From IMG/VR virus record IMGVR_UViG_2690316311_000004, positions 1-10,226 of that record: a DNA stretch of 10,226 bases; one strand, given 5' to 3'. The DNA comes from a virus. Taxonomy: Duplodnaviria > Heunggongvirae > Uroviricota > Caudoviricetes. Position numbers and translations under genes: made by a program. Position 1 is the stretch's first letter. Each line of letters begins with the position of its first letter. Below are positions 1-10,226 of the stretch, piece after piece. The notes under the pieces were generated by a model. That model had not been told where the DNA came from and made no database searches. It saw nothing but the letters and a program-made list of their open reading frames with translations.

Positions 1-541
1 ATACGTCGTGCCCGTCTTCCTGTAACTGGTTCAGCAGATTCATCAGCAGTGAGTTCTCCGTCAGGCCGAGAACACCAGACGGCGAATGAATCAGGCTGCG
101 GTAGCCGGGCTTCAGTGGGGCGCTGTATTCTTTTTTGTCTTCCAGCTTGATCGCCTCCATAATGGCGGGCATGAAGCCTGACAAGACCTTCTCCACTTTT
201 GTTTCTTGTTGTCTTAAACGTTTCTCGCATTCAATGAAGTAGCGTCGTACCTGACGACCTTTTTCGTTACGCTCGACCATTGCTAGTTCTTTGGCTGTAT
301 CGAGGGTGAGGTGGTACTCTTTGCGGTTGTGGCCGCCTCTACCAGATGTTTGCTTTCCCAAATTGGAAAGCAAAATATAGTCTTGATTTTCAATGAATTC
401 GTATTCTGAAATGCGATTTGTAATCCATGCTGCAAACACCTTTTTAACACCTAAAAAAGCGTGCAGATCGCGGGCATTGCAAAGTAGGGCTGTTTCGTTA
501 GATATAGTGCCGTTGAATACGGGGATGAGTTGACTGGTCAT
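1..541 (-). CDS. Phage antirepressor, AntA/KilAC-type (N-terminal ~180 codons; 3' end runs off the window start)
   Basis: Minus-strand ORF with ATG at 541-539 preceded by AAGGAGG (plus 547-553) 5 nt upstream; no stop before position 1. Translation [58 protein letters not shown]...[42 protein letters not shown] fits the AntA-type antirepressor N-terminal domain as I recall it. Not in the ORF track because truncated. Confidence 0.8.
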
Positions 542-570
542 GATGACCTCCTTTGAAGTTTTAGTTAGCA

Positions 571-593
571 ATCACCAGTTAGTAGCTGGTGAT
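571..593. promoter_or_regulatory. Perfect 8-bp inverted repeat ATCACCAG-ttagtag-CTGGTGAT about 30 bp upstream of the antirepressor start
   Basis: Visible; lies in the antirepressor promoter/5' leader region on the minus strand. Binding factor unknown. Confidence 0.35.
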
Positions 594-705
594 CGGGTGT
601 CAACTAGAGCCTTCAAAGACGCTCCGGGCATATTCCCCTTTTGGGTATTGTATTACGCCTCTCCACCCGACCTTTGTACGGATGTGACTATGCCAAATTG
701 CAGGC

Positions 706-735
706 ATAAAAAAGCCGCAAAGCTATCGGGTGCGG
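706..735 (-). terminator. Possible weak terminator ending the leftward operon
   Basis: Minus-strand RNA CCGCA-(11-nt loop)-UGCGG followed by CUUUUUUAUG; short stem and long loop. Confidence 0.3.
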
Positions 736-865
736 GTGACCGCTTTGAAGTTCTAGTGCGGTCAGTATGCGATAGCTCTGGCGGCATTGTCAAATCATGC
801 GCCACTGAGTCCAGCAATCTCTGCAATACCAATAGCGAGATAATCGCGATTCGTCAGGCGTGATT

Positions 866-1114
866 TTATTGCATATGTCTTAGCTCCACTGAAGTTGTGA
901 TTTTATATGGGTTGCCTTTTACCTCAATAACACGATGAGGATCATTTTTTAGCTCTTCCGTAATCTTCCGTAATCTTCTAACAGCTGAACTTCGGTGTTT
1001 ATAACGGTAAGTTACAGTTTCTTTTCTCTGCAATACCTCATCATTGCGGTACTTAGTCAAAACCATGACGACTTCAAACCTGACGCCGTTGTGTGCAACC
1101 ATAATCTGCTTCAT
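866..1114 (-). CDS. Small basic hypothetical protein (82 aa), translationally coupled to the upstream methyltransferase
   Basis: ATG at 1114-1112 overlaps the methyltransferase TGA (ATGA overlap); GGGAG about 9 nt upstream. Product MKQIMVAHNGVRFEVVMVLTKYRNDEVLQRKETVTYRYKHRSSAVRRLRKITEELKNDPHRVIEVKGNPYKITTSVELRHMQ is K/R-rich with no family I recognise. Contains a 10-bp tandem repeat that sets the C-terminal frame. The ORF track extends it to 1234, which I consider unlikely. Confidence 0.45.
   Translation of the reverse strand: MKQIMVAHNGVRFEVVMVLTKYRNDEVLQRKETVTYRYKHRSSAVRRLRKITEELKNDPHRVIEVKGNPYKITTSVELRHMQ
955..978. repeat. Tandem repeat of the 10-mer CTTCCGTAAT (2.4 copies) inside the 866..1114 ORF
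   Basis: Directly visible: cttccgtaat at 955-964 and 965-974, then cttc at 975-978. The period is not a multiple of 3, so copy number determines the reading frame of the last ~30 codons. Confidence 0.9.
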
Positions 1115-1761
1115 GCTGCACGCTCCCGCCCCTGGTTGTCTGTTGGTGACAGCGGAGCATTGCTGAATGCATTTGTTAATCCGCCAATATCCAACGCGTA
1201 TCCAGGGTGTAGTTGCACTGCCGGGTCTTCGCACTGATTACCCCAAACATCGAAACCATGAGACGACTGGCGGGCGAACAGTTCAATGCGAGAAACATCG
1301 CCTAACAATTGCACAAGTTTTTCACGAACGATATCTGGTTTTCTTGAATGCTCAAGCCGCGGTGCGGTAAATGACTGAACGATCCCTGCATTAATGCGCG
1401 TAGGTAGTTTTCCCTTTACCGCAAACAGGCAATCTTCACTATTGGCGCGAGTCATGTGCCCCATACCCATAACCAGTTTATCTGGTTGTCGACTACCACA
1501 TTTTATCCACGTGAAGCCCTTCATGGTCATCAGACGGAATCCCCAGGCTTCAACAACTTTTAGTGCTTCGAGTGGTTGTGTTGGCACCCACCACATGGCC
1601 AACAGACAGTTTTCATCGGCCAAATCCCACACAGGAAGGCGGCAGATATCCAGCACACTCATAACCGGATATTTAAAACCGGCACCGCGATTACCATCTG
1701 CGGCTTTGTCCCGGTATACCCAGGGTGGATCTGCATAGATTAGTGTGTATTTCTTAGTCAT
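1111..1761 (-). CDS. MT-A70-family (beta-class) N6-adenine DNA methyltransferase
   Basis: 216-aa ORF with ATG at 1761-1759. N-terminal LIYADPPWVY (DPPW catalytic motif) and C-terminal RIELFARQSSHGFDVWGNQ are characteristic of the MT-A70 family as recalled. Stop overlaps the start of the downstream small ORF. Confidence 0.85.
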   Translation of the reverse strand: MTKKYTLIYADPPWVYRDKAADGNRGAGFKYPVMSVLDICRLPVWDLADENCLLAMWWVPTQPLEALKVVEAWGFRLMTMKGFTWIKCGSRQPDKLVMGMGHMTRANSEDCLFAVKGKLPTRINAGIVQSFTAPRLEHSRKPDIVREKLVQLLGDVSRIELFARQSSHGFDVWGNQCEDPAVQLHPGYALDIGGLTNAFSNAPLSPTDNQGRERAA

Positions 1762-2053
1762 AAACCACCCCGCAACATCCTATGCCGCTATAGTCGCCAC
1801 GGCGAAGGCCGTTACCTTTTGTGATACATTGGTCCCTGCGAACCGCGATCCTTGCACGCTCAACATCACCAGAAGCAACATCCATACACTGAAGCCAAAG
1901 GTGGGCGGCAATGCGGAACTGCCCTTTTTTCTCTCTTTCAATCGCGCGTTTTTCGATCTCTATCGCCGCAGGAGTAACGGCAACAACCTTTGAAGGGCTG
2001 CGCATTGAAACCTTGTTCATGTGATATTTTTCAAGTCGGCTTAACTTTCTCAC
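1754..2053 (-). CDS. Hypothetical protein; start uncertain (GTG 2053, or ATG at 2020 or 2005)
   Basis: ORF overlaps the methyltransferase start by 8 nt, suggesting co-translation. The GTG at 2053 has no good SD; the ATG at 2005 has AAGG 5 nt upstream. No recognisable domain. Confidence 0.4.
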   Translation of the reverse strand: MRKLSRLEKYHMNKVSMRSPSKVVAVTPAAIEIEKRAIEREKKGQFRIAAHLWLQCMDVASGDVERARIAVRRDQCITKGNGLRRGDYSGIGCCGVVYD

Positions 2054-2162
2054 TTAATCCAACCATCTCTGAAAATTAATGCCAGCAGATAAAGCCATGC
2101 AGAAACAGAGGCCAGGAATAAGTACCATCCTGACCATTTGCTCCAGTGCCTTAGCAGCACAC

Positions 2163-2411
2163 TCATGCCGCGTTGCTCACGGGACGATATACACGTTGCT
2201 GAACAGGAGGTTTTTTACCCTGGAACTCTGCCGGGCTTGCTGCCTGACGTTCATCAAGCCAACGCTCAACTTCATCACGGTTCCATGCGCAGCGTTTATC
2301 GGTGATATACCAGCGTTTAGGAAATTCCCCTGCGCGCTCCATACGGTCGATAGTGCTCCATGACAGTGGCACCACCGCCAGGAGTTCCTTCTTACCTAAT
2401 GCACCTTTCAT
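2163..2411 (-). CDS. AlpA-family phage transcriptional regulator / excisionase-like HTH protein
   Basis: 82-aa ORF with ATG at 2411-2409 and AGAGAGG SD 6 nt upstream. LLAVVPLSWSTIDRMERAGEFPKRWYITDKRCAWNRDEVERWLDERQA matches the AlpA/Xis-type winged-helix pattern (S-STIYR-IK-G-FP-...W...EV-.W) from memory. Confidence 0.75.
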   Translation of the reverse strand: MKGALGKKELLAVVPLSWSTIDRMERAGEFPKRWYITDKRCAWNRDEVERWLDERQAASPAEFQGKKPPVQQRVYRPVSNAA

Positions 2412-2433
2412 AAATACCTCTCTTGGTTGCAGT

Positions 2434-2452
2434 GCGGCGCGCGTGGCGCCGC
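2434..2452. other. Perfect 7-bp GC-only inverted repeat (GCGGCGC-gcgtg-GCGCCGC) between the annealing-protein and AlpA-like genes
   Basis: Visible in the sequence; no T-run follows on either strand, so it is not a canonical intrinsic terminator. Confidence 0.4.
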
Positions 2453-2460
2453 GGTGGTGG

Positions 2461-3342
2461 TTACATAGATGTTTCGTTTAATTCTTCCCGACGAACGCTG
2501 TAAACGTCGGTGGCTTTTGCCAGCAGTTCGTCATCATCTGAAAGTTTTTGTGCAATGTATTTGTAAGCCTTATCCAGTTCGGAGACAGTGCTGTAATTCA
2601 TCGCTGCGCTGGTAAAGGCCATCAGCATTTCTTCTGGATCACGGCTATCCGCTTTACGCGTTTGCTCATCAGGCTTTTTCGCTGGTTTAGCGTTGATCAG
2701 ACTGTTCATTCCCGCAGCAGTGGTCGTTTGCGGAGTAATGTCTCGCTCAACGCGCGGTGCCGTTTCCTGTAATTCGTCAGGGGTGTAAACACCGAGAAGT
2801 ACATCAGGAGCGTGCAGGCGAGCCCATCGTTTCGTGCAAAGATAGGCAAGCTGCTGGCGCGGATCCTGTTCCCACAATGGAGAGTTACGCACTCCGGCTT
2901 GCGCCATACTGATGGTAAGCTCACGGGGTTCTGCTTCTCCTTTAAGAACTGCTGACACAGTTACCGTCAGATTCGGTGATTTATCTGTTTTGCCGTTAAC
3001 ATTCGACCAGTCACCGCTCCAGCGATAATTCAGGCGTGTCGCTAGCAGGCTGGAAGAGGATACGACCGCGTTTACCAACTGTGCTTCGTAGCCTAACGTT
3101 CCGTTTACCACATGCGTTTTCTGCGCCACGGCGAAAGGATTCATTCCCCACTGTGCCGCCTGCATGGTCACCGCCAGACAATCGGCAGGTTTGCCTTCAA
3201 GATGTTTCGGTACAGTCGCTTTGCTTTGTGACATCAACTCCGCGAAACGCACCAGTTGATTCATGCCCTCCGGGCTGAAGATTGCCGCAGCAGTACCTAC
3301 AGTTGCGCCTGGTTGTGATGTGATTGCGATATCATTGCTCAT
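2461..3342 (-). CDS. Single-strand annealing recombinase, Bet (Red-beta)/RecT superfamily
   Basis: 293-aa ORF whose ATG overlaps the exonuclease stop (ATGA). Segments MQAAQWGMNPFAVAQKTHVVNGTLGYEAQL, QQLAYLCTKRWARLHAPDVLLGVY and ERDITP parallel lambda Bet (ANQYGLNPW..., KAMIQCARLAFGFAGIY, ERDITP) as I recall it. Sits directly after an exonuclease gene. Confidence 0.85.
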   Translation of the reverse strand: MSNDIAITSQPGATVGTAAAIFSPEGMNQLVRFAELMSQSKATVPKHLEGKPADCLAVTMQAAQWGMNPFAVAQKTHVVNGTLGYEAQLVNAVVSSSSLLATRLNYRWSGDWSNVNGKTDKSPNLTVTVSAVLKGEAEPRELTISMAQAGVRNSPLWEQDPRQQLAYLCTKRWARLHAPDVLLGVYTPDELQETAPRVERDITPQTTTAAGMNSLINAKPAKKPDEQTRKADSRDPEEMLMAFTSAAMNYSTVSELDKAYKYIAQKLSDDDELLAKATDVYSVRREELNETSM

Positions 3343-4160
3343 ACGTACATATCCTGTTTACGTGCCCAGTCAGGGCGTTTAATAATTTCCACTCCGCCCC
3401 ACTCATCGTTGATGCGGCATTCGTGATAGGTATTCAGATCCCGGCGGAACAGAGCGTGCCCGGCATCGACATCCGGCGCATCCAGCTCGAACACGCGTAC
3501 CGGATACCGACCACAATCAATGCTTTCGCTCACGGCAAGAAAGAAAAAACCATGTGGCTGACCAGTAACCCTCATTGCGCCTTCGCGGTACATTGCGTCC
3601 TGCACGTGGTAGCGGAACTCCTCGATGTGGCGTGCAAAACGGTCCATATCTGCAACCTTTTTCACGTCGACGATCACGTTGTGCTCGTTCAGCCATTTGT
3701 CTGGACGAATTCGGCACAACTCACCCGTATCTTCATCGTTCCAGTACATTGATGCTTCGCAGTAACCATGTGCTTCCAACATCCAGCGTGCCGCCGGGTG
3801 AGCCATTGCGCTATCACGCATCAGCTCCAGTTTTCGCCACTGCTCTGCATCAAGTACCGAAATCCCCATATCCGCTACATCACGAATAAATGCCTCTTCG
3901 TCAGCTTTACCTTGTTTTGTCCGACGATCGAATTTCGGTGAAACGATGAAGCGTTTGTCAAACTCTCCAGGTTCCAGAAGCAGACAGTGCAGAGCAGTAC
4001 CCATGTCCAGTGCAGACTTCTTCTCTTCGTCTTCCGGAGCAGCCTTCACCCATTTCAGAAGGGCAGGGTTCTTAGCCACCATATCTAGCTGCGACTTACT
4101 CACGCCGTCACCGGCGTGGTAGTCCTCGTTGCTGATATCGAAATAAATTCCCGGATTCAT
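3339..4160 (-). CDS. Exonuclease VIII-like (RecE C-terminal type) PD-(D/E)XK nuclease, recombination partner of the annealing protein
   Basis: 273-aa ORF. N-terminal GIYFDISNEDYH, a PDKW...VIVDVKKV (D...D-x-K) block and HVQDAMYREG (Q-x3-Y) fit the PD-(D/E)XK fold of prophage exodeoxyribonuclease VIII-like proteins (recalled). Coupled to ORFs on both sides by ATGA overlaps. Confidence 0.8.
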   Translation of the reverse strand: MNPGIYFDISNEDYHAGDGVSKSQLDMVAKNPALLKWVKAAPEDEEKKSALDMGTALHCLLLEPGEFDKRFIVSPKFDRRTKQGKADEEAFIRDVADMGISVLDAEQWRKLELMRDSAMAHPAARWMLEAHGYCEASMYWNDEDTGELCRIRPDKWLNEHNVIVDVKKVADMDRFARHIEEFRYHVQDAMYREGAMRVTGQPHGFFFLAVSESIDCGRYPVRVFELDAPDVDAGHALFRRDLNTYHECRINDEWGGVEIIKRPDWARKQDMYV

Positions 4161-4456
4161 GCCGCGTCCCTCTGCCCATCAAGCTGATCCGCCAGCTCCC
4201 AGCGGGCGATAATTGCCATTGCCTCTCGCCGATAGGCATCCATCAGTTCTTCGAACTCAGGGCTGTCTTTAGCAGCCTCCAGCACTTCCTGACGAACGCC
4301 TTTGCCTGTTACAACGTCAAAAGTTGAGGCCAGTTGATGAAGCCGGATACTCTCAATCAGTTCGACTTGTCGGTCATATAGCTGTTCTGACAGGCGGTAG
4401 TCCTTGTCGAATGCCAGCATGATTTTTTGAAGATTTTTCTGCTGATTAACGTTCAT
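4157..4456 (-). CDS. Hypothetical protein occupying the gam-like position upstream of the exonuclease
   Basis: ATG at 4456-4454 (MNVNQQKNLQKIM...) with GGGAGGG SD 8 nt upstream. The ORF-track start at 4471 lies inside that SD, so I prefer 4456. No confident family assignment; not obviously lambda Gam. Confidence 0.6.
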   Translation of the reverse strand: MNVNQQKNLQKIMLAFDKDYRLSEQLYDRQVELIESIRLHQLASTFDVVTGKGVRQEVLEAAKDSPEFEELMDAYRREAMAIIARWELADQLDGQRDAA

Positions 4457-4458
4457 TA

Positions 4459-4611
4459 TCAGCCCTCCCATATCTCGTTATCGTTGGCCACATCGCGAGC
4501 TTCTTTGCTGACGAAAGCCCACTTAATACCTTCCTGTAAGGTGCGGAACTTCCAGCTCATGAATCCGCATGCAGTAACGCAGTACCAACCGTTGATGATT
4601 TTCCACTGCAT
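4459..4611 (-). CDS. Small ORF (50 aa) at the kil-like first position of the leftward operon
   Basis: ATG at 4611-4609 with GAGG SD 9 nt upstream. Product MQWKIINGWYCVTACGFMSWKFRTLQEGIKWAFVSKEARDVANDNEIWEG. Its stop lies in the SD of the next gene. Absent from the ORF track, presumably under a length cut-off. Confidence 0.35.
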   Translation of the reverse strand: MQWKIINGWYCVTACGFMSWKFRTLQEGIKWAFVSKEARDVANDNEIWEG

Positions 4612-4667
4612 AACTTGTTACCTCGGCCTGTTATCGTTGAGGTAATAATTATGCGTATCTGGTTTGA

Positions 4668-4673
4668 TGTCAA
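4668..4673 (-). promoter_or_regulatory. Candidate -35 hexamer (TTGACA on the minus strand) of a pL-like leftward early promoter
   Basis: Perfect TTGACA on the minus strand about 55 nt upstream of the 4611 start. The -10 is ambiguous (CATAAT/TAATTA at about 4645-4652). An operator palindrome lies just upstream at 4693-4707. Confidence 0.35.
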
Positions 4674-4692
4674 TAGATATGAGTTAAAAAAA

Positions 4693-4707
4693 TTACCCAT
4701 TAGGTAA
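4693..4707. promoter_or_regulatory. Operator-like palindrome TTACCC-att-AGGTAA (copy 1 of 6)
   Basis: Visible palindrome, extendable to ATTACCCATTAGGTAAT (4692-4708). Sits between the repressor-gene terminator and the leftward promoter. Confidence 0.6.
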
Positions 4708-4717
4708 TCGAATAGGC

Positions 4718-4744
4718 AATAAAAAAGCCGCCTTCTGGCGGCTT
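4718..4744 (-). terminator. Intrinsic terminator of the repressor gene (minus strand)
   Basis: Minus-strand RNA reads AAGCCGCC-AGAA-GGCGGC followed by TTTTTTATT: a 6-7 bp GC stem with 4-nt loop and U-run, 20 nt downstream of the repressor stop. Confidence 0.75.
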
Positions 4745-4764
4745 ACTTACTGAAAAATATGATT

Positions 4765-5349
4765 TTATTGTTTGTTTTTTTCGTTCTGGTTGATGACAAA
4801 TTCAATGTAACTTTCGATCTTTGCTTTCTCGGTTTCGGGTAACAATGCGTAGCGCGAGCGATCATAGTTGATGGTCGCAGGGTCGTGCGGGTGAATCAGT
4901 AATTCATAGCCGTGACGCCCGAATGCGGATGCAACATTCTCCAGGGTGGAAATGGAAACGCTGACCTCATTGTTTAACAGGCGGCTGATTGTCACTTGGG
5001 CGACGCCGGATGCGCGGTGTAGTTTTCCCTGCGTTGAAAGGTCGCGGCTTTCGCTCATCCAGCGTTCCAGGTTGTGAGCCGCCAGCTGACCTATATCGCT
5101 CGGGCCGACAGGCTGAAAACCCTCCTGAGAAAGCGAGCGATCAATATCAAGCCAGTTACGGGGTTTATTGGCGGCAGCTTCAATTTTTCGTGCAACCTGG
5201 TCGCCGATAACCTTCTTGCCAAGAGCCCAGCGGTTTACCAGATTTGCCTGAGTTCCAAGTTTTTCTGCCATCCGCGTCTGAACACCATTGAATTCACGGT
5301 CGATCAAGTCGTTGAGATTTTGCCTGCGGACGTCCTGGATACTTTTCAT
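4765..5349 (-). CDS. Prophage repressor candidate with two tandem HTH (XRE/CI-type) domains and no recognisable S24 peptidase domain
   Basis: 194-aa ORF divergent from the Cro-like gene. First HTH around QTRMAEKLGTQANLVNRWALGKKVIGDQVARKI; second around LHRASGVAQVTISRLLNNEVSVSISTLENVASAFG. No Ala-Gly/Ser-Lys autocleavage module seen. Poor SD, consistent with a near-leaderless maintenance transcript. Confidence 0.8.
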   Translation of the reverse strand: MKSIQDVRRQNLNDLIDREFNGVQTRMAEKLGTQANLVNRWALGKKVIGDQVARKIEAAANKPRNWLDIDRSLSQEGFQPVGPSDIGQLAAHNLERWMSESRDLSTQGKLHRASGVAQVTISRLLNNEVSVSISTLENVASAFGRHGYELLIHPHDPATINYDRSRYALLPETEKAKIESYIEFVINQNEKNKQ

Positions 5350-5372
5350 TTTCTGGAAAATCGCCTCATATA

Positions 5373-5391
5373 TGAATCAGTAGATGATTCA
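5373..5391. promoter_or_regulatory. Unique perfect palindrome TGAATCA-gtaga-TGATTCA about 25 bp upstream of the repressor start
   Basis: 7-bp arms with 5-bp spacer, visible in the sequence. A different motif from the recurrent TTACC/GGTAA palindrome and not repeated elsewhere in the window. Confidence 0.4.
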
Positions 5392-5404
5392 ATTTAAAGC
5401 AATA

Positions 5405-5419
5405 TTACCCAACAGGTAA
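5405..5419. promoter_or_regulatory. Operator-like palindrome TTACCC-aac-AGGTAA (copy 2 of 6), OR-like region
   Basis: Visible palindrome in the divergent repressor/cro intergenic region. Confidence 0.6.
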
Positions 5420-5449
5420 ATGCACCTCATAGGTAACTATCCTTGATTT

Positions 5450-5478
5450 TTGTTACCTTATGGGTGAATATTTATTAT
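5450..5478 (+). promoter_or_regulatory. Candidate pR-like promoter for the Cro-like gene (-35 TTGTTA 5450-5455, 17-bp spacer, -10 TATTAT 5473-5478)
   Basis: Hexamers read by eye; an alternative -35 is TTGATT at 5443-5448. Operator copy 3 lies between -35 and -10. Confidence 0.4.
5453..5467. promoter_or_regulatory. Operator-like palindrome TTACCT-tat-GGGTGA (copy 3 of 6, one mismatch)
   Basis: Visible; overlaps the proposed pR spacer. Confidence 0.5.
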
Positions 5479-5503
5479 CTGAAATAAATATCAGGCAATA
5501 GCT

Positions 5504-5734
5504 ATGAGCGATAACGGACATTTCGATTTCAAAAAGCACTGGCTTGCACTTACTCCGGATGAGCGTGAAGCCTTCGCACAGGAAGCCGGAACAACGAGTC
5601 ACTATATCCAGACTCACTTAACAGGTAAGCGCAAAATGCCAGGTAAGGTATTGATGAATGGGCTTTTTAAAGCCTGTAAAACAAGACAATGGCTGCGCTC
5701 AAAAGCAGAACTGGCATACTTCTTCTACTCATGA
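5504..5734 (+). CDS. Cro-like / YdaS-like small HTH regulator
   Basis: 76-aa ORF divergent from the repressor. HTH-like segment EAFAQEAGTTSHYIQTHLTGKRKMPGKVL. Followed by an intrinsic terminator. Weak SD (AGG 8 nt upstream). Confidence 0.65.
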   Translation: MSDNGHFDFKKHWLALTPDEREAFAQEAGTTSHYIQTHLTGKRKMPGKVLMNGLFKACKTRQWLRSKAELAYFFYS

Positions 5735-5756
5735 TATCCAGCTACAACCCTCTGTA

Positions 5757-5782
5757 GACCGCCACCCGGCGGTCTTTTCATA
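5757..5782 (+). terminator. tR1-like intrinsic terminator after the Cro-like gene
   Basis: GACCGCC-accc-GGCGGTC followed by TTTTCATATCTATT: 7-bp GC-rich stem, 4-nt loop, T-rich tail. Confidence 0.65.
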
Positions 5783-5789
5783 TCTATTC

Positions 5790-5804
5790 GTACCTCAAAG
5801 GTAA
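5790..5804. promoter_or_regulatory. Operator-like palindrome GTACCT-caa-AGGTAA (copy 4 of 6, one mismatch)
   Basis: Visible; immediately downstream of the tR1-like terminator. Confidence 0.45.
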
Positions 5805-5884
5805 TAAAAAACCAAATCTGGTTGATCTTTTTTTTGTGTCAGCACAAAATGACCGTAATCCCAATACTAATAACAGGGCTTACC

Positions 5885-6085
5885 ATGGAAATCATTACAC
5901 GTATTGATGCCGCAAAGCGCGGACTTAAACGCTACTACACCGGAAAACCATGTAAGCATGGACATGACAGTGAACGCTGGGTTTACAACGGACACTGTGT
6001 TGAGTGCACCATGGAATCAAACCGTCGCATCAGGGCAGAGATTAAGCAGATCATGATTAATTCCTCCCCACAACACTCAAGCTGA
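5885..6085 (+). CDS. Small Cys/His-cluster (zinc-ribbon-like) hypothetical protein in the cII-like position
   Basis: Product MEIITRIDAAKRGLKRYYTGKPCKHGHDSERWVYNGHCVECTMESNRRIRAEIKQIMINSSPQHSS has C-x-H-G-H ... H-C-x-E-C spacing suggestive of metal binding. Start ambiguous: ATG 5885 (weak SD), ATG 5849, or the ORF-track TTG at 5822. Confidence 0.5.
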   Translation: MEIITRIDAAKRGLKRYYTGKPCKHGHDSERWVYNGHCVECTMESNRRIRAEIKQIMINSSPQHSS

Positions 6086-6100
6086 TAGCGGAGATTAATC

Positions 6101-6934
6101 ATGAGCAGACATGCAACAGATTGGGCCTGGGAGACAGATCCAGGTAGCTCATCATTAAAGCTCATACTGCTCTCGATGGCTGACAGAGCCGATGAATATA
6201 ACCTCTGCTACCCCAGCATAGAACGCCTCGTTAAAGACACTTGCCTGAATAAAAAAACCGTGCAGGCCGGGCTTATATCGCTCATGAAAATGGGGCTTAT
6301 TTCAGATACCGGAGAGAGAAAGGGAGCGACGAAAAGAGTGCGGGTTTTCTCTCTTAATATAACCAAAAACGGGAACATTAAAGGCAACCGGGAAGGGGGT
6401 AATGAACCCGAAAACGGTAATGTTACCGAAAACGGTAATGTTACCGAAAACGGGAATATACCCAAAAACGGGATGTTGAATGATCCCAAAAACGGGATGT
6501 TGAATGATCCCAAAAACGGGATCCAGAACCAGTCATATAACCAGTCATTTAACCAAGAGAGGGAGAGCAGGACAAAAAGCGGGGATTCTGTGCCTCATGA
6601 CCCCGGCGCAAACAACGCCGTGATGAATAACTTTGTTCCTCCTGGTGGGCCAGGGCAATTAGGCAAATTTGTCATGCATGAACAATGGCAACCATCAGAT
6701 GACTTTCTTCGGAAAAGCTCATTGCAGGGGATCTACCTGGACAGTCTGCCAACGGCACAGGAACTTGCAGAGTTCAGAATTTACTGGATGGCTGAGGGTA
6801 AGGCATACCATCAGGCGCAGTGGGAGCAGAAGCTGGCAAGGCGGCTGCAGATTAGCAGACAGAAGCAATCAACATTACCTGATAACAACGTTCCGCACTG
6901 GAACAGCCCTGAAGCATGGGAGGATTTCTTGTGA
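6101..6934 (+). CDS. Replication initiator (O-like): N-terminal winged-helix replication HTH domain, iteron-encoded linker, C-terminal DnaT-like domain
   Basis: 277-aa ORF with GGAG SD 8 nt upstream. N-terminus WAWETD...SSLKLILLSMADRADEYNLCYPSIERLVKDTCLNKKTVQAGLISLMKMGLIS is replication-initiator HTH-like. C-terminus GKFVMHEQWQPSDDFLRKSSL...ELAEFRIYWMAEGKAYHQAQWEQKLARRLQISR closely parallels E. coli DnaT (GKFAMYPDWQPDADFIRL...[29 protein letters not shown], recalled). Stop overlaps the P start (GTGA). Confidence 0.85.
   Translation: MSRHATDWAWETDPGSSSLKLILLSMADRADEYNLCYPSIERLVKDTCLNKKTVQAGLISLMKMGLISDTGERKGATKRVRVFSLNITKNGNIKGNREGGNEPENGNVTENGNVTENGNIPKNGMLNDPKNGMLNDPKNGIQNQSYNQSFNQERESRTKSGDSVPHDPGANNAVMNNFVPPGGPGQLGKFVMHEQWQPSDDFLRKSSLQGIYLDSLPTAQELAEFRIYWMAEGKAYHQAQWEQKLARRLQISRQKQSTLPDNNVPHWNSPEAWEDFL
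6361..6552. repeat. Origin-like iteron array inside the O-like gene
   Basis: Seven copies of a CC(C/G)AAAACGG(G) core at 6363-6373, 6407-6417, 6426-6435, 6444-6454, 6461-6472, 6485-6496 and 6509-6520, with 18-bp then 24-bp periodicity. Several are palindromic (ATCCCaaaaacGGGAT, GTTACCgaaaacGGTAA), resembling lambda ori iterons (TCCCTCAAAACGAGGGA, recalled). Followed by a tandem 12-mer CCAGTCAT(A/T)TAA x2 at 6529-6552. Confidence 0.7.
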
Positions 6935-7716
6935 ACAACGTTTTTACCGCAATACAAAACCGTGACGGAGAAGCTCTTTCTCGCATGTCAGGTTATGAGC
7001 ATCAGTACGTCAACAATGACAACGTAGTGAACATGTCAGCAGAGAGGCTTGTTGATGCCCTTTTCAAACAGTTGAAACAACTGTTTCCGGCGGCAGTGGT
7101 AACCAACCTGAAGACGCCAGAGCAGGAAGTTGCTGCAAAACAGCAGTGGATTGCTGCGTTTGCCGAAGGGGGGATCCGAACCCGTGAACAGGTTTCTGCT
7201 GGTATGCGCCACGCCCGCGCCAGTGATTCTCCGTTCTGGCCGTCGCCAGGGCAATTCATCAAGTGGTGCAAAGACAGCAAGATGGTTCTTGGCGTCACCA
7301 TTGACGATGTGATGACGGAGTTTCACCGGTACAGCAAGGAAAAAAGTTTATATCCTGGTGGTCCCGAAAGATTCCCGTGGCGGCATCCGGTTATGTACTG
7401 GGTCGTATGTGATACCCGCCGTGCAATGTATCAGCGCCAGCTTAGCGAGATAGAGGTTGAGAAACACGCGCGCAGGCTGCTCGATGATTGGGCGAAAAAG
7501 GTGGCTTCCGGACAGCAGATACCCGATCCGGTGATCAGCATACAGGCAAAGCCAGAACCCATGAGTACGCCTCCGGACACAGGGAGAGACGTTTACCATC
7601 CACCAGGGCGAAGTTTCGGGTGCATGCCTAACGCCGCCACCCTTGGGGGAATAACACCGGCGCAGTGGCTGATGGAGGAATACAGGCGAGGAAAGGCGGA
7701 AGGATTTATCAAGTAA
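6931..7716 (+). CDS. Replication protein P homologue (DnaB helicase loader), lambda P family
   Basis: From GTG 6931 (GGAGGA SD 6 nt upstream) the product VNNVFTAIQNRDGEA... aligns with lambda P MKNIAAQMVNFDREQ...; QQWIAAFAEGGIRTREQVSAGMRHARASDSPFWPSPGQFIKWCKD matches lambda P RQWVLAFRENGITTMEQVNAGMRVARRQNRPFLPSPGQFVAWCRE (recalled). The ORF-track ATG at 6916 is the alternative start. Confidence 0.9.
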   Translation: MNNVFTAIQNRDGEALSRMSGYEHQYVNNDNVVNMSAERLVDALFKQLKQLFPAAVVTNLKTPEQEVAAKQQWIAAFAEGGIRTREQVSAGMRHARASDSPFWPSPGQFIKWCKDSKMVLGVTIDDVMTEFHRYSKEKSLYPGGPERFPWRHPVMYWVVCDTRRAMYQRQLSEIEVEKHARRLLDDWAKKVASGQQIPDPVISIQAKPEPMSTPPDTGRDVYHPPGRSFGCMPNAATLGGITPAQWLMEEYRRGKAEGFIK

Positions 7717-7721
7717 TACCA

Positions 7722-7741
7722 GCGCGATAGCGCATTTTTTT
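7722..7741 (+). terminator. Weak tR2-like terminator after P
   Basis: GCGC-gata-GCGC followed by ATTTTTTT, 6 nt after the P stop. The stem is only 4 bp, so confidence is low. Confidence 0.35.
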
Positions 7742-7753
7742 ACGTTTCGATAA

Positions 7754-7768
7754 TTACCTGTTAGGTAA
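7754..7768. promoter_or_regulatory. Operator-like palindrome TTACCT-gtt-AGGTAA (copy 5 of 6; perfect, extends to ATTACCTGTTAGGTAAT)
   Basis: Visible; upstream of the candidate promoter -35 at 7788. Confidence 0.6.
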
Positions 7769-7787
7769 TAAAATATTCTAAAATCTA

Positions 7788-7816
7788 TTGATTTCGTGTC
7801 TTATGTGGTTTTTAAT
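7788..7816 (+). promoter_or_regulatory. Candidate sigma70 promoter for the DUF1064/Ea22 block (-35 TTGATT 7788-7793, 17-bp spacer, -10 TTTAAT 7811-7816)
   Basis: Hexamers read by eye; flanked by operator copies 5 (upstream) and 6 (overlapping the -10 and start region). Confidence 0.45.
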
Positions 7817-7830
7817 TACCTCAGGGGTAA
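7816..7830. promoter_or_regulatory. Operator-like palindrome TTACCT-cag-GGGTAA (copy 6 of 6)
   Basis: Visible; ends 3 nt before the ATG at 7834 and overlaps the proposed -10. Confidence 0.55.
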
Positions 7831-7833
7831 ATC

Positions 7834-8178
7834 ATGAGAAAACAGATACAGGCTCTTGGTCGACTCAAAACAGGCCAGATGAACAAAACAGAATCTGCGT
7901 ATTGCCAGCACCTTGAGCTGCGTAAACGTGCAGGAGAAATCGTCTGGTATCGATTTGAGGGTATCAAGCTTCGGTTAGCTGACAACACGTTCTATACGCC
8001 CGATTTTGCTGTGATGCTCGCCACCGGCGAGATGGAACTGCACGAAGTGAAAGGTTTCTGGACCGACGACGCCAGGGTGAAAACCAAAGTCGCCGCAGAT
8101 CAGTATCCGTTCCGAATCATCGGGGTAACGGTTAAACCAAAGAAAGCAGGTGGTGGCTGGAATATCGAAGAGTTCTGA
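7834..8178 (+). CDS. DUF1064-like phage protein (putative nuclease-fold protein)
   Basis: 114-aa ORF with AGGGG SD 6 nt upstream. YTPDF...ELHEVKGFWT resembles the D...E-x-K-type core I associate with the phage DUF1064 family; assignment from memory. Confidence 0.65.
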   Translation: MRKQIQALGRLKTGQMNKTESAYCQHLELRKRAGEIVWYRFEGIKLRLADNTFYTPDFAVMLATGEMELHEVKGFWTDDARVKTKVAADQYPFRIIGVTVKPKKAGGGWNIEEF

Positions 8179-8239
8179 ATCGACGATCTTTTTAGTTATC
8201 AATGTAATCAATAAGTTATGTGGATAAGCGAGGGTAAAG

Positions 8240-8872
8240 ATGGAAAGTAATATCAAAGGGTTAGTTGCCGCCGGGCATGAGATGGCTTCGGAACTGAAAG
8301 CAGAATGTGGTGCCGTTGATATGCGCAGTGTGGCAAAGCTGATCAGCGATTTGGCAACGCAACTGGAAGTGCAACTGGTGCGTGCTAATGCGCTGGCCGA
8401 AGACCAGCAGAAAGCGATTGAGTCAATTAAGCAGGCTGATTCGGCTGTTAAGTTGGCACACGAGAAGTTTTCGGCGCTGGCGGCGGAGAATGCGGGGCTG
8501 AAACATGCAATGGCTGTAACTCTTGAGCATGTGTCGGTCACGGATGCAGGTCAGGCCGGAGTTGCTGCAATGATTATCAACGATGCCCTGCACCACAGCG
8601 AAACTCCAGCCACCGATGCTTTTCTGGCTGAAATTCGTGCGGCGGCTCGCAACGAGGGGATTAACTATACCGCAAGCCGTCTTGCTGCTGCTTTCAACCA
8701 CGGATTTATCAATAAGTCTTTACGTGAAGTTTTCGACGTTACGCGCATGATTCTGTCAGCGAAAGAAGAGTTGGCTAATGAACCGCACCCGATTGATGGC
8801 CTGTCCGGTGAATATGCGGAGAAATCCCTTGAAGAATGGGCGGAACAGATTCGCAAAGGAGCTGACAAGTGA
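8240..8872 (+). CDS. Ea22-like (ead/Ea22-like family, tentative) phage protein, paralogue A
   Basis: 210-aa ORF with a coiled-coil-like middle (ALAAENAGLK) and a C-terminal domain (ETPATDAFLAEIRAAARNEGINYTASRLAAAFNHGFI...RMILSAKEE) shared with the ORF at 9288..10073. The family name is a tentative recollection. Confidence 0.6.
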   Translation: MESNIKGLVAAGHEMASELKAECGAVDMRSVAKLISDLATQLEVQLVRANALAEDQQKAIESIKQADSAVKLAHEKFSALAAENAGLKHAMAVTLEHVSVTDAGQAGVAAMIINDALHHSETPATDAFLAEIRAAARNEGINYTASRLAAAFNHGFINKSLREVFDVTRMILSAKEELANEPHPIDGLSGEYAEKSLEEWAEQIRKGADK

Positions 8873-9279
8873 AGAGGATGATTTTTGTGGCGGCATTGCT
8901 GACCATTACCCAACAGGCGCAGGCTTCAGCAGTTATTGTGGCATCTACCGCCGCGACCACGGCTGCTGTAGCTGCTGCGAACTCTGCGAATATCGCAAAC
9001 CAACAGTCACAGCGTGCTGCCAATGCATCAGCCAGTGTTCACCCAATCGCCATTAAGGCCAGCAAGAAAAATATAGGTTTCATAACATGCGGCAAACGTT
9101 CTGACGAGGCTGTAGGTTCACTTGGATGTACGGTATATGGGGATAGTGAGAGTAGAGAAATTCCATGGAAAACGTGGCCCGGATATGTTCTCGGATCGAA
9201 GCTCACTGCCAGCTATGAAGTAAACGCCGTATCGTTTGATCACTATAACGGCGTGGCAACGGTCTATTTTGCATATTGA
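8869..9279 (+). CDS. Small secreted/periplasmic protein with Sec-type signal peptide; function unknown
   Basis: GTG at 8869 overlaps the upstream stop (GTGA), with AAGGAG 7 nt upstream. N-terminus MKRMIFVAALLTITQQAQA has n-region KR, an 11-residue hydrophobic core and an AQA-S cleavage-like site, followed by an Ala/Thr/Ser-rich linker and a ~70-aa C-terminal domain with two Cys. Confidence 0.6.
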   Translation: MKRMIFVAALLTITQQAQASAVIVASTAATTAAVAAANSANIANQQSQRAANASASVHPIAIKASKKNIGFITCGKRSDEAVGSLGCTVYGDSESREIPWKTWPGYVLGSKLTASYEVNAVSFDHYNGVATVYFAY

Positions 9280-9287
9280 GGCTCCGC

Positions 9288-10073
9288 ATGAAATTCTCCA
9301 AATTTTCTGAGTTGGTGAATCGTATTTTGTCCAACAACCACAGCCATCGTCGCGATATGGATGTAACGATCGTTGTTCATTCGCCTGGCAGCATTGGTTC
9401 AACACCCTCAGTTGAGGTTCAGTCAATTCACGCTGGTTTTGATTGGGATTCCGGGAAAGTGCTGATTTTCCCAGCACAGCCACTGACTACGCTAACACCA
9501 GAACAGATTACTGATATTACTGATAGTGTGCGCAAAGGTCAGTCCTGGCACGCATATCAGGAATATAAGAAGCATAAAGAGCAGTTGGAAAAATTATCGA
9601 TTGAACTTGATACCGCAAAACAGCGCATTGCAGAGCTGGAGGGTAATCGCGCGGCGCTGGCTGCGGAGAATGCGAGACTGAAGGCGATATGTGAGGATCG
9701 CCGCACGTTCATTATGAATGGCGTGCAGCTTGGTTTTATCAAAGTGCCAACAGTGGAAATAGATCCAGCTCTTGAAACAATTCGTATCGCCCTATCACCA
9801 CAAAAAACCACTCCTGCGACCGACACTTTCCTGGATGAAGTGAAGACTGAAGCACGCAAGGAGGGCGCTTACTTTGTGGCGAACAGAATGCTGGCTGCTT
9901 GGGAAGCTGGTTTTATTGATGATACTGCGAAGAACGCCGCGGATATTGCCCGGATGATTCTTACCTCTACTGAGTTTATGGCTAATGCGCGGGAAGGCGA
10001 TTTTGACCGCTCATTCTCTGATGGCGTTCTCGAAGATATCGCTGACCAGCTTCGAAAAGGAGGCAAACAGTGA
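9288..10073 (+). CDS. Ea22-like (tentative) phage protein, paralogue B
   Basis: ATG at 9288 with GAGG 6 nt upstream (the ORF track uses TTG at 9276). Coiled-coil IAELEGNRAALAAENARLK and C-terminal TTPATDTFLDEVKTEARKEGAYFVANRMLAAWEAGFI...RMILTSTEF parallel paralogue A. Confidence 0.6.
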   Translation: MKFSKFSELVNRILSNNHSHRRDMDVTIVVHSPGSIGSTPSVEVQSIHAGFDWDSGKVLIFPAQPLTTLTPEQITDITDSVRKGQSWHAYQEYKKHKEQLEKLSIELDTAKQRIAELEGNRAALAAENARLKAICEDRRTFIMNGVQLGFIKVPTVEIDPALETIRIALSPQKTTPATDTFLDEVKTEARKEGAYFVANRMLAAWEAGFIDDTAKNAADIARMILTSTEFMANAREGDFDRSFSDGVLEDIADQLRKGGKQ

Positions 10074-10226
10074 GCAAGATTGACTATCAGGCACTGCGCG
10101 AGGCGGCAGAAGCAATAAAAGTCGTGGCAACGCCGCAAAAATTGCTTGCGTTTCGTATGAAAGTCACACCGCAGGTTGTGCTGGTGCTGCTGGATGAACT
10201 AGAAGCTAAAAACAAACGCATTACAG
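10070..10226 (+). CDS. Partial ORF (5' end only), hypothetical phage protein
   Basis: GTG at 10070 overlaps the upstream stop (GTGA), with AGGAGG 6 nt upstream. Reads MSKIDYQALREAAEAIKVVATPQKLLAFRMKVTPQVVLVLLDELEAKNKRIT... with no stop before the window end. Confidence 0.45.
   Translation, partial: MSKIDYQALREAAEAIKVVATPQKLLAFRMKVTPQVVLVLLDELEAKNKRIT

Follow-up and report, generated by a model that had tools for sequence, protein, structure and literature searches.

The object of this analysis is a run of three overlapping minus-strand genes at positions 866 to 2053 of a 10,226-nucleotide (nt) stretch of viral DNA (Caudoviricetes; IMG/VR record IMGVR_UViG_2690316311_000004, positions 1 to 10,226), which at its full length is referred to here as the window. 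A sequence-only reading had described these genes as a cassette of a hypothetical protein, an MT-A70 adenine methyltransferase and a small basic protein, tightly packed for co-expression at the 3' end of the early left operon and a candidate anti-defence or epigenetic module. By megablast, the window is a phiV10/epsilon15-like (Uetakevirus-type) prophage adjoining guaA in Escherichia coli, and the matching E. coli chromosome in RefSeq is 100% identical and has all three coding sequences annotated. The gene order in E. coli 2015C-4944 runs guaA, int, ant, the gene for the basic protein of 82 amino acids (aa), the MT-A70 gene, a PerC-family gene, a helix-turn-helix (HTH)/AlpA gene, RecT and a PD-(D/E)XK exonuclease, beyond which lie small open reading frames (ORFs), a repressor and then replication genes running rightward. 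The three ORFs form the distal, int-proximal end of the leftward early operon, so that the earlier placement is right as to the end of a leftward operon, but the ant module, which has a promoter-like site of its own, and then int lie past them. The genes and their junctions are as follows:

1754 to 2053, minus strand: predicted PerC-family small regulator gene (99 aa, GTG start, isoelectric point (pI) 9.8; PF06069, phrog_868, RefSeq name)
1111 to 1761, minus strand: orphan MT-A70 (beta-class) N6-adenine methyltransferase gene (216 aa; PF05063, phrog_359, PADLOC)
866 to 1114, minus strand: gene for an 82-aa basic protein, putative rare cargo (ATG start, pI 10.3, 39% GC; phrog_9805)
1754 to 1761, minus strand: junction of the PerC stop and the methyltransferase start, ATGACTAA, preceded by GGGGTGGTTT (read from the sequence)
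1111 to 1114, minus strand: junction of the methyltransferase stop and the downstream start, ATGA within GGGAGCGTGCAGCATGA, with a Shine-Dalgarno (SD)-like GGAG (read from the sequence)

Both overlaps, the 8 nt shared by the PerC and MT-A70 genes (ATGACTAA on the coding strand) and the ATGA shared by the MT-A70 gene and the 82-aa ORF, can be read directly from the sequence, as had been described, and the overlaps bear out the tight packing for co-expression. The interpretation we favour, and hold to be reasonably likely, is that this end of the operon is made up of three independently assorting modules and not of one machine. The first, the PerC-family small regulator, would belong to the phage backbone; the second, the orphan MT-A70 enzyme, would occupy a 'methyltransferase slot' that elsewhere holds unrelated Dam-family or C5+Dam enzymes; and the third, the low-GC 82-aa gene, would be cargo in a slot otherwise taken by DUF1382 or a Ser/Thr phosphatase. 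The modules would be swapped at conserved junctions, GGGGTGGTnTATGACTAA at the end of PerC and GGAG-N8-ATGA at the end of the methyltransferase, which may translationally couple whichever gene arrives.

Gene neighbourhoods, junctions and slots

We extracted the flanking co-oriented ORFs of 80 viral loci with a methyltransferase at least 98% identical to that of the window (close set), and a diverse set comprised 40 genomic MT-A70 loci at 55-91% identity. At 76 of the 80 close loci the PerC ORF stands directly upstream and overlaps the methyltransferase gene by 8 nt. The downstream gene is DUF1382 (64 aa) at 53 loci, a calcineurin-like phosphatase (219 aa) at 21 and the 82-aa ORF at 6, and at none of the 40 diverse loci does the 82-aa ORF follow the methylase. 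At the level of genomes, 874 match some part of the PerC-methyltransferase query, with the 82-aa ORF present in only 19 of 5,426 complete ones. The three-way co-occurrence that would define a cassette of PerC, MT-A70 and 82-aa genes is therefore not seen, which speaks against the proposed three-gene module. From these comparisons, the 'three-gene cassette' would reflect the usual mosaicism of phages, not a novel system of three parts.

The closest described arrangement is that of phage phiV10, where the PerC-family activator PhiV10p34 and the DNA methyltransferase PhiV10p33 lie in a segment that begins at the methyltransferase stop, takes in PerC, AlpA and RecT and has 98% nt identity to the window. 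Phage phiV10 shares the 8-nt PerC/methylase overlap, the methylase tail and the terminal ATGA with the window, but after the methylase it continues with DUF1382 (64 aa) and int, whereas the window continues with the 82-aa ORF and the ant module. Epsilon15 (with gp31 and an adenine methylase; Uetakevirus) and most other relatives keep gp30/DUF1317 between PerC and the methylase, which the window lacks.

Conservation of the junctions was observed directly. The PerC genes end in GGGGTGGTnTATGACTAA at all 13 loci examined, and the ATG embedded in this sequence starts MT-A70 here and DUF1317 in the relatives. The PerC/methyltransferase junction would act as a portable docking sequence, and the direct PerC/methylase overlap seen here would be a derived state following loss of DUF1317. 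The 3' junction of the methyltransferase is identical at 80 of 80 close loci, whatever the next gene: DUF1382, the phosphatase and the 82-aa ORF all begin at one ATG inside GGGAGCGTGC(A/T)GCATGA, and their sequences part directly after it. Diverged MT-A70 genes of other genera mostly end in GCnGCATGA as well, overlapping unrelated genes. Since unrelated downstream genes share this junction, the ATGA coupling and the SD-like GGAG belong to the 3' end of the methyltransferase and not to a partnership, a point on which the earlier interpretation is not supported.

The overlaps also extend further upstream, into two additional genes:

2050 to 2166, minus strand: 38-aa membrane-protein ORF, unannotated (from the ORF list; 95% identical to the phiV10 'membrane protein' PhiV10p35)
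2163 to 2411, minus strand: AlpA-family regulator/excisionase-like gene, first of the five-gene overlap chain (Pfam PF05930, E 3e-5; RefSeq)

The 38-aa ORF overlaps PerC by GTGA and the AlpA-like gene by ATGA, and the exo and RecT genes, farther upstream, likewise share a 4-nt overlap. From the AlpA-like gene to the 82-aa ORF the chain comprises at least five consecutive genes, and therefore overlaps do not define a cassette. The 38-aa ORF has no RefSeq annotation in the identical chromosome; a database protein (P0094) consists of this ORF fused to PerC.

Variability of the methyltransferase slot is equally evident from the neighbourhoods of PerC homologues at 62-68% identity, in which a PF05869 Dam enzyme, a C5+Dam fusion or an MT-A70 enzyme lies between PerC and int. 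Among 42 viral loci with such a PerC, 24 carry MT-A70, 13 Dam, 4 C5+Dam and 1 none, so that a methylase is present at 41 of 42. The orphan Dam-type methyltransferases (PF05869, for example M.EcoVT2Dam), which in sibling prophages take the corresponding place between PerC and int and have an expected specificity for GATC, belong to an unrelated fold family, whereas the window enzyme is of the circularly permuted MT-A70 type. Because sibling phages fill the slot with classical DNA methylases, we favour a generic role in DNA-adenine methylation for the enzyme found here. The order in epsilon15, SPN1S, Tyrion and a Klebsiella phage is PerC, a small ORF (gp30/DUF1317), optionally a DGQHR/DndB or winged HTH (wHTH) gene, the methylase, small ORFs and int. 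A DndB/DGQHR gene (PF14072, about 330-367 aa) stands between PerC and MT-A70, with a 4-nt overlap with the latter, in SPN1S (locus L257, 3120-4115) and at loci L056, L075, L076 and L091, and Tyrion has a 75-aa wHTH gene in this position, directly upstream of the methylase. The gene directly 5' of such methylases often encodes a nucleic-acid-binding protein.

Several observations weigh against the modular interpretation or the DNA-directed role that we attach to it. The 80 close loci are closely related and do not represent 80 independent events, and replacement within the slot is equally compatible with plain cargo turnover in which the enzymes are not functionally equivalent. Between variants of the 82-aa ORF, 2 codons differ synonymously and 6 non-synonymously, which gives no clear sign of purifying selection. 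In addition, the homologue of the methyltransferase in phage phiPA8 (83% identity) is weak on DNA alone and prefers 16S ribosomal RNA (rRNA) when combined with the protein PNB-2.

Annotations of the PerC gene and of the methyltransferase exist already, both in RefSeq and in phiV10, and what the locus shows is a prophage arrangement known before, plus a passenger. As a three-gene system it is of little importance, the third gene being a rare passenger, but it offers a clean case of gene exchange at conserved start/stop junctions that carry the ribosome-binding site of the incoming gene.

PerC-domain genes upstream of phage adenine methyltransferases

The upstream ORF, previously listed as hypothetical, can be assigned to a family: it matches Pfam PF06069 (E 6e-7, 30.1 bits against a cut-off of 22.6) and, over its full length, phrog_868 'transcriptional activator' (E 6.5e-62), and it is named 'PerC family transcriptional regulator' in RefSeq. 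Twenty aligned homologues at 62-85% identity are conserved from residue 1 onwards, in support of the GTG start of the 99-aa product; all end in GVVYD, and W53, R72, R73 and C76 are invariant. The phrog_868 subfamily is confined to epsilon15-like phages, and the gene is described here as a putative PerC-family regulator that would be a backbone gene of epsilon15/phiV10-like phages. PerC of enteropathogenic E. coli and PchA-E of enterohaemorrhagic E. coli, activators of LEE1/ler (Fukui et al. 2016, PMC4764244), belong to the same Pfam family as the window protein and are likewise small, basic and located on horizontally acquired elements. The characterised PerC/Pch proteins are anti-H-NS regulators, with the activity of Pch shown in PMC4764244. 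The phrog_868 subfamily differs from PerC/Pch in its confinement to one group of phages, and the window shows nothing on virulence regulation.

We scored a pairing wherever an N6-adenine methylase has a co-oriented PerC-domain gene no more than about 1.2 kb upstream, and looked for it in more than one phage context. With a PerC hidden Markov model (HMM), such an upstream gene was found at 79 of 80 close loci. It is present at 13 of the 40 diverse MT-A70 loci, counting L100, which is recognised by Pfam and PHROGs alone, and absent from the other 27. At L100, L102, L104, L110 and L122 the PerC-methylase pair stands after the replication genes and before RusA (nin/replication context), where some of the PerC domains are preceded by a wHTH in a fusion protein. 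A comparable arrangement exists in the CPS-53 prophage of E. coli K-12, where the PerC-domain gene yfdN is directly followed by the N6-adenine methyltransferase gene yfdM, as in the window; YfdN has 164 aa, combines a wHTH with a PerC domain and is encoded in a replication-region context, and YfdM is a fragment of the PF05869 Dam family, not MT-A70 as here. Among YfdN-like loci, a Dam-family gene follows in 71 of 80. A PerC gene thus occurs upstream of an adenine methylase in more than one phage context, with the reservation that these counts overstate how many events were independent, since many of the loci sampled are close relatives. No published description of a PerC-methyltransferase linkage was found in the literature searched.

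One tentative idea, which we consider conceivable without thinking it likely, is that PerC-domain proteins are ancestral companions of phage orphan N6-adenine methyltransferases, both in the int-proximal left arm of epsilon15-like phages and in the replication/nin region of lambdoid prophages, yfdN-yfdM of K-12 among them, serving either as regulators of the methylase or as nucleic-acid-targeting partners in parallel to the non-homologous PNB-2 of phiPA8. If this is true, the window would hold the arrangement in its smallest, two-gene form, with direct translational coupling of PerC to the enzyme. The PerC-methylase pairing is the sole part of the locus that deserves follow-up: it bears on whether prophage MT-A70 enzymes modify DNA unaided or rRNA together with a partner, and could illuminate the origin of the Pch/PerC virulence regulators in pathogenic E. 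coli.

The link could be one of regulation, with PerC controlling expression of the methylase in a controller-like manner or counteracting silencing at methylation-sensitive promoters. The recurrence of PerC genes upstream of two unrelated adenine methylase families and in two genome contexts, for instance in YfdN-YfdM of K-12, is consistent with such a link. However, much of the signal can be put down to backbone synteny within a single phage genus, operators, promoters and GATC clusters were looked for in the cassette without success, and the literature searched offered no support, so that we regard a regulatory link as rather unlikely.

The orphan methyltransferase and its probable substrate

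The middle gene is an MT-A70 enzyme, as had been recognised. It matches Pfam PF05063 at E 3.3e-22 (79.7 bits against a cut-off of 23.9), with residues 5-176 spanning positions 1-172 of the 172-position profile, as well as phrog_359 (E 3e-120) and the PADLOC Type II MTase model (E 2.8e-77). The catalytic motif IV, DPPW, is intact at residues 11-14 (YADPPWVY, residues 9-16), residues 188-216 form a lineage-specific tail, and among solved structures MT-A70 family proteins and METTL3 come closest. The description of the methyltransferase as solitary also stands. No endonuclease gene flanks it, the neighbours being PerC, the 82-aa ORF, ant, AlpA and RecT, and the PD-(D/E)XK gene of the operon pairs with RecT as a recombination exonuclease. 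Since there is no flanking endonuclease gene, the methyltransferase is an orphan; with the cognate endonuclease gene lacking, it does not form part of a Type II restriction-modification system.

The best-studied relative is M.EcoPA8orf6770P, the MT-A70 enzyme of the Shiga toxin 2 (Stx2) phage phiPA8, which raises spontaneous induction and virulence (Gong, Chakraborty and Koudelka, Nucleic Acids Research 2023, PMC10810198). Alone, this enzyme is weakly active on DNA in vitro; with PNB-2, the product of the directly upstream gene, it forms a 1:1 complex that prefers 16S rRNA (PMC10810198). The authors suggest that its last 27 residues may bind PNB-2, and report that a DPPW to APPA mutant loses function (PMC10810198). 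The window enzyme is 83% identical to M.EcoPA8orf6770P over residues 1-187 (E 9e-124), including MTKKYTLIYADPPW, and qualifies as its orthologue; the DPPW motifs align, and both genes lie in the left arm near int and overlap the upstream gene. With DPPW intact, a full-length Pfam match and this degree of identity to an enzyme inactivated by the DPPW to APPA exchange, the window enzyme is predicted to be catalytically competent. The alignment ends at residue 187, beyond which the tails of the two enzymes are unrelated. Strict covariation of the methylase tail with the upstream gene was considered and rejected, as three loci with an identical tail have DndB directly upstream.

A further relative, M.EcoGV, is called highly similar to the PA8 enzyme and methylated GATC when over-produced (PMC10810198); it is listed as GATC-specific and carried on Stx2 prophages (Forde et al.). 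By analogy with M.EcoGV, the window enzyme probably methylates adenine in DNA at GATC-like sites, and such methylation would keep the phage DNA modified, for protection, epigenetic control or both. The enzyme may have an anti-restriction role, as the sequence-only reading had put forward. The DNA/GATC role is inferred and not shown, since the closest studied enzyme is weak on DNA alone and prefers 16S rRNA with PNB-2. As a sign of specificity, neither depletion nor clustering of GATC was found (37 sites against about 39 expected).

It is improbable, in our view, that the PerC-like protein is a partner subunit of the methyltransferase, a functional analogue of PNB-2 that would direct the enzyme to rRNA or DNA. 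The idea draws on position: PerC stands directly upstream of and overlapping the enzyme gene, where in phiPA8 the upstream product forms a 1:1 holoenzyme with its enzyme, and a co-oriented PerC gene recurs at the close and diverse loci counted above and in the nin/replication context, sometimes fused to a wHTH. The two proteins nevertheless share no homology. The upstream product is a PerC-like protein of 99 aa in the window and a wHTH protein of 143 aa (PNB-2) in phiPA8, BLASTP gave no match between them and hhalign a probability of 1.8%, and profile comparison of PNB-2 with wHTH+PerC proteins gave 1%, so that the PerC-like ORF was rejected as a PNB-2 homologue; nor did a PNB-2 HMM find a match in the window. 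Moreover, DUF1317, DGQHR/DndB or wHTH genes intervene before the methylase in most relatives, one and the same PerC subfamily also pairs with Dam-family and C5+Dam enzymes, 27 of the 40 diverse MT-A70 loci have no PerC, and the characterised PerC/Pch proteins act as anti-H-NS regulators.

Another possibility is that the enzyme, like its phiPA8 homologue, acts chiefly on 16S rRNA and thereby modulates spontaneous prophage induction, and is not a DNA methylase. The 83% identity of the catalytic core to M.EcoPA8orf6770P, the 16S rRNA preference and the effects on induction and virulence reported for that enzyme (PMC10810198), and the presence of METTL3, an RNA N6-methyladenosine enzyme, among the nearest solved structures all point in this direction. 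Yet the preference for rRNA required PNB-2, which is absent here, the tail proposed to bind PNB-2 has been replaced, and the modified rRNA base was never identified for the PA8 enzyme (PMC10810198). In addition, M.EcoGV methylates GATC in DNA and classical DNA methylases fill the slot in sibling phages. Taken together, we find a predominantly rRNA-directed function quite unlikely and continue to favour DNA adenine as the probable substrate.

The 82-aa cargo gene and neighbouring features

The product of the downstream ORF is basic, as had been noted (pI 10.3; 18 K+R against 9 D+E), and the GC content of the ORF is 39%, compared with 49-50% in its neighbours. Besides the 19 complete E. coli genomes, the ORF occurs in one phage record. 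The earlier remark that the protein has no recognisable family is borne out, in that its sole PHROG match is phrog_9805, a family of unknown function, and no significant Pfam, NCBIfam, PADLOC or fold match was obtained; the fold searches detected no nucleic-acid-binding fold. A word-indexed search returned a single 90%-identity cluster, and an exhaustive HMMER search returned one real homologue, one fragment and two spurious-looking matches to repeat proteins. The real homologue (P0003), the only diverged one, has 72 aa and aligns without gaps at 52% identity; its gene lies in another integrase-linked element, after a gene for a 353-aa protein without a Pfam match, and no recognised methyltransferase gene stands beside it in that element. 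AlphaFold (AF2), run with a three-sequence input, gave a mean confidence (pLDDT) of 83.3 and predicts a bb-a-bb fold in which a beta-hairpin is followed by a helix and two further strands; residues 1-11 are disordered. The gap-free homologue and the confidently predicted fold suggest that the ORF is a real gene and not a chance ORF. A relationship to the DUF1382 gene found after the methylase elsewhere was considered and rejected, no similarity being found; the gene downstream of the phiPA8 enzyme, also DUF1382, is likewise unrelated.

The sequence-only reading had raised the possibility that this protein serves the methyltransferase either as a subunit for specificity or targeting or as a dedicated regulator, completing a three-gene anti-defence/epigenetic module; the ATGA overlap with its shared SD-like GGAG, the basic character of the protein and the frequent requirement of MT-A70 enzymes for partners would fit, but the enzyme with an identical tail precedes unrelated genes at 74 of 80 loci through one and the same junction, which argues strongly against a subunit, the ORF is of foreign composition and far rarer in genomes than the PerC-methyltransferase segment, P0003 has no recognised methyltransferase neighbour, the phiPA8 partner is encoded upstream and not downstream, and no nucleic-acid-binding fold was detected, so that we consider this very improbable and, to judge from the comparative data, largely refuted. 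The distribution of the gene suggests instead that it is rare cargo in a hypervariable, swappable slot, and its product may work independently of the enzyme in an accessory ('moron'-type) function.

Within the ORF, positions 954-978 hold a perfect 10-nt tandem repeat of 2.5 copies, GAAGATTACG on the coding strand, with RRLRKITEE as its translation. The reading frame would shift if one unit were gained or lost; six related loci show no variation in copy number.

No promoters or terminators dividing the cassette were found on the coding strand, the counts being at the level of shuffled sequence, and Rfam revealed no structured RNA inside it, the sole match falling in the leader of the ant module. 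This leader borders the 82-aa ORF:

542 to 865, minus strand: cargo-insert boundary, with the non-coding leader and promoter region of the ant module, outside the cassette (conservation, promoter-like site, Rfam)

The stretch 542-800, which carries no annotation, has conserved counterparts in 382 of the 5,426 complete E. coli genomes, O157:H7 and O104:H4 included, compared with 19 for the 82-aa ORF. Positions 583-672 on the minus strand match the Rfam family sRNA-Xcc1 (RF02221; 62.9 bits against a gathering score of 53, E 9e-10), and a sigma-70-like promoter-like site lies upstream of ant at 793 to 764 on the minus strand. The stretch looks like a structured leader or small RNA that travels with ant modules. 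On the plus strand, a 107-aa ORF at 540-863 matches phrog_38841 (E 3e-56); it overlies the ant leader and the sRNA-Xcc1 region, has no annotation in RefSeq and is probably a spurious ORF call that was taken into PHROGs.

Elsewhere in the window, the replication gene at 6101-6934 (DnaT-like/O-like) holds three adjoining tandem-repeat arrays at 6398-6555 (18 nt x 4.1, 24 nt x 2.6 and 12 nt x 2.4), which encode NGNVTE and PKNGMLND repeats and resemble the iteron-type origin repeats embedded in lambda O. The plus-strand ORFs at 8240-8872 (210 aa) and 9276-10073 (265 aa) are paralogues over their C-terminal approximately 140 residues, with 35% identity (E 1e-18).

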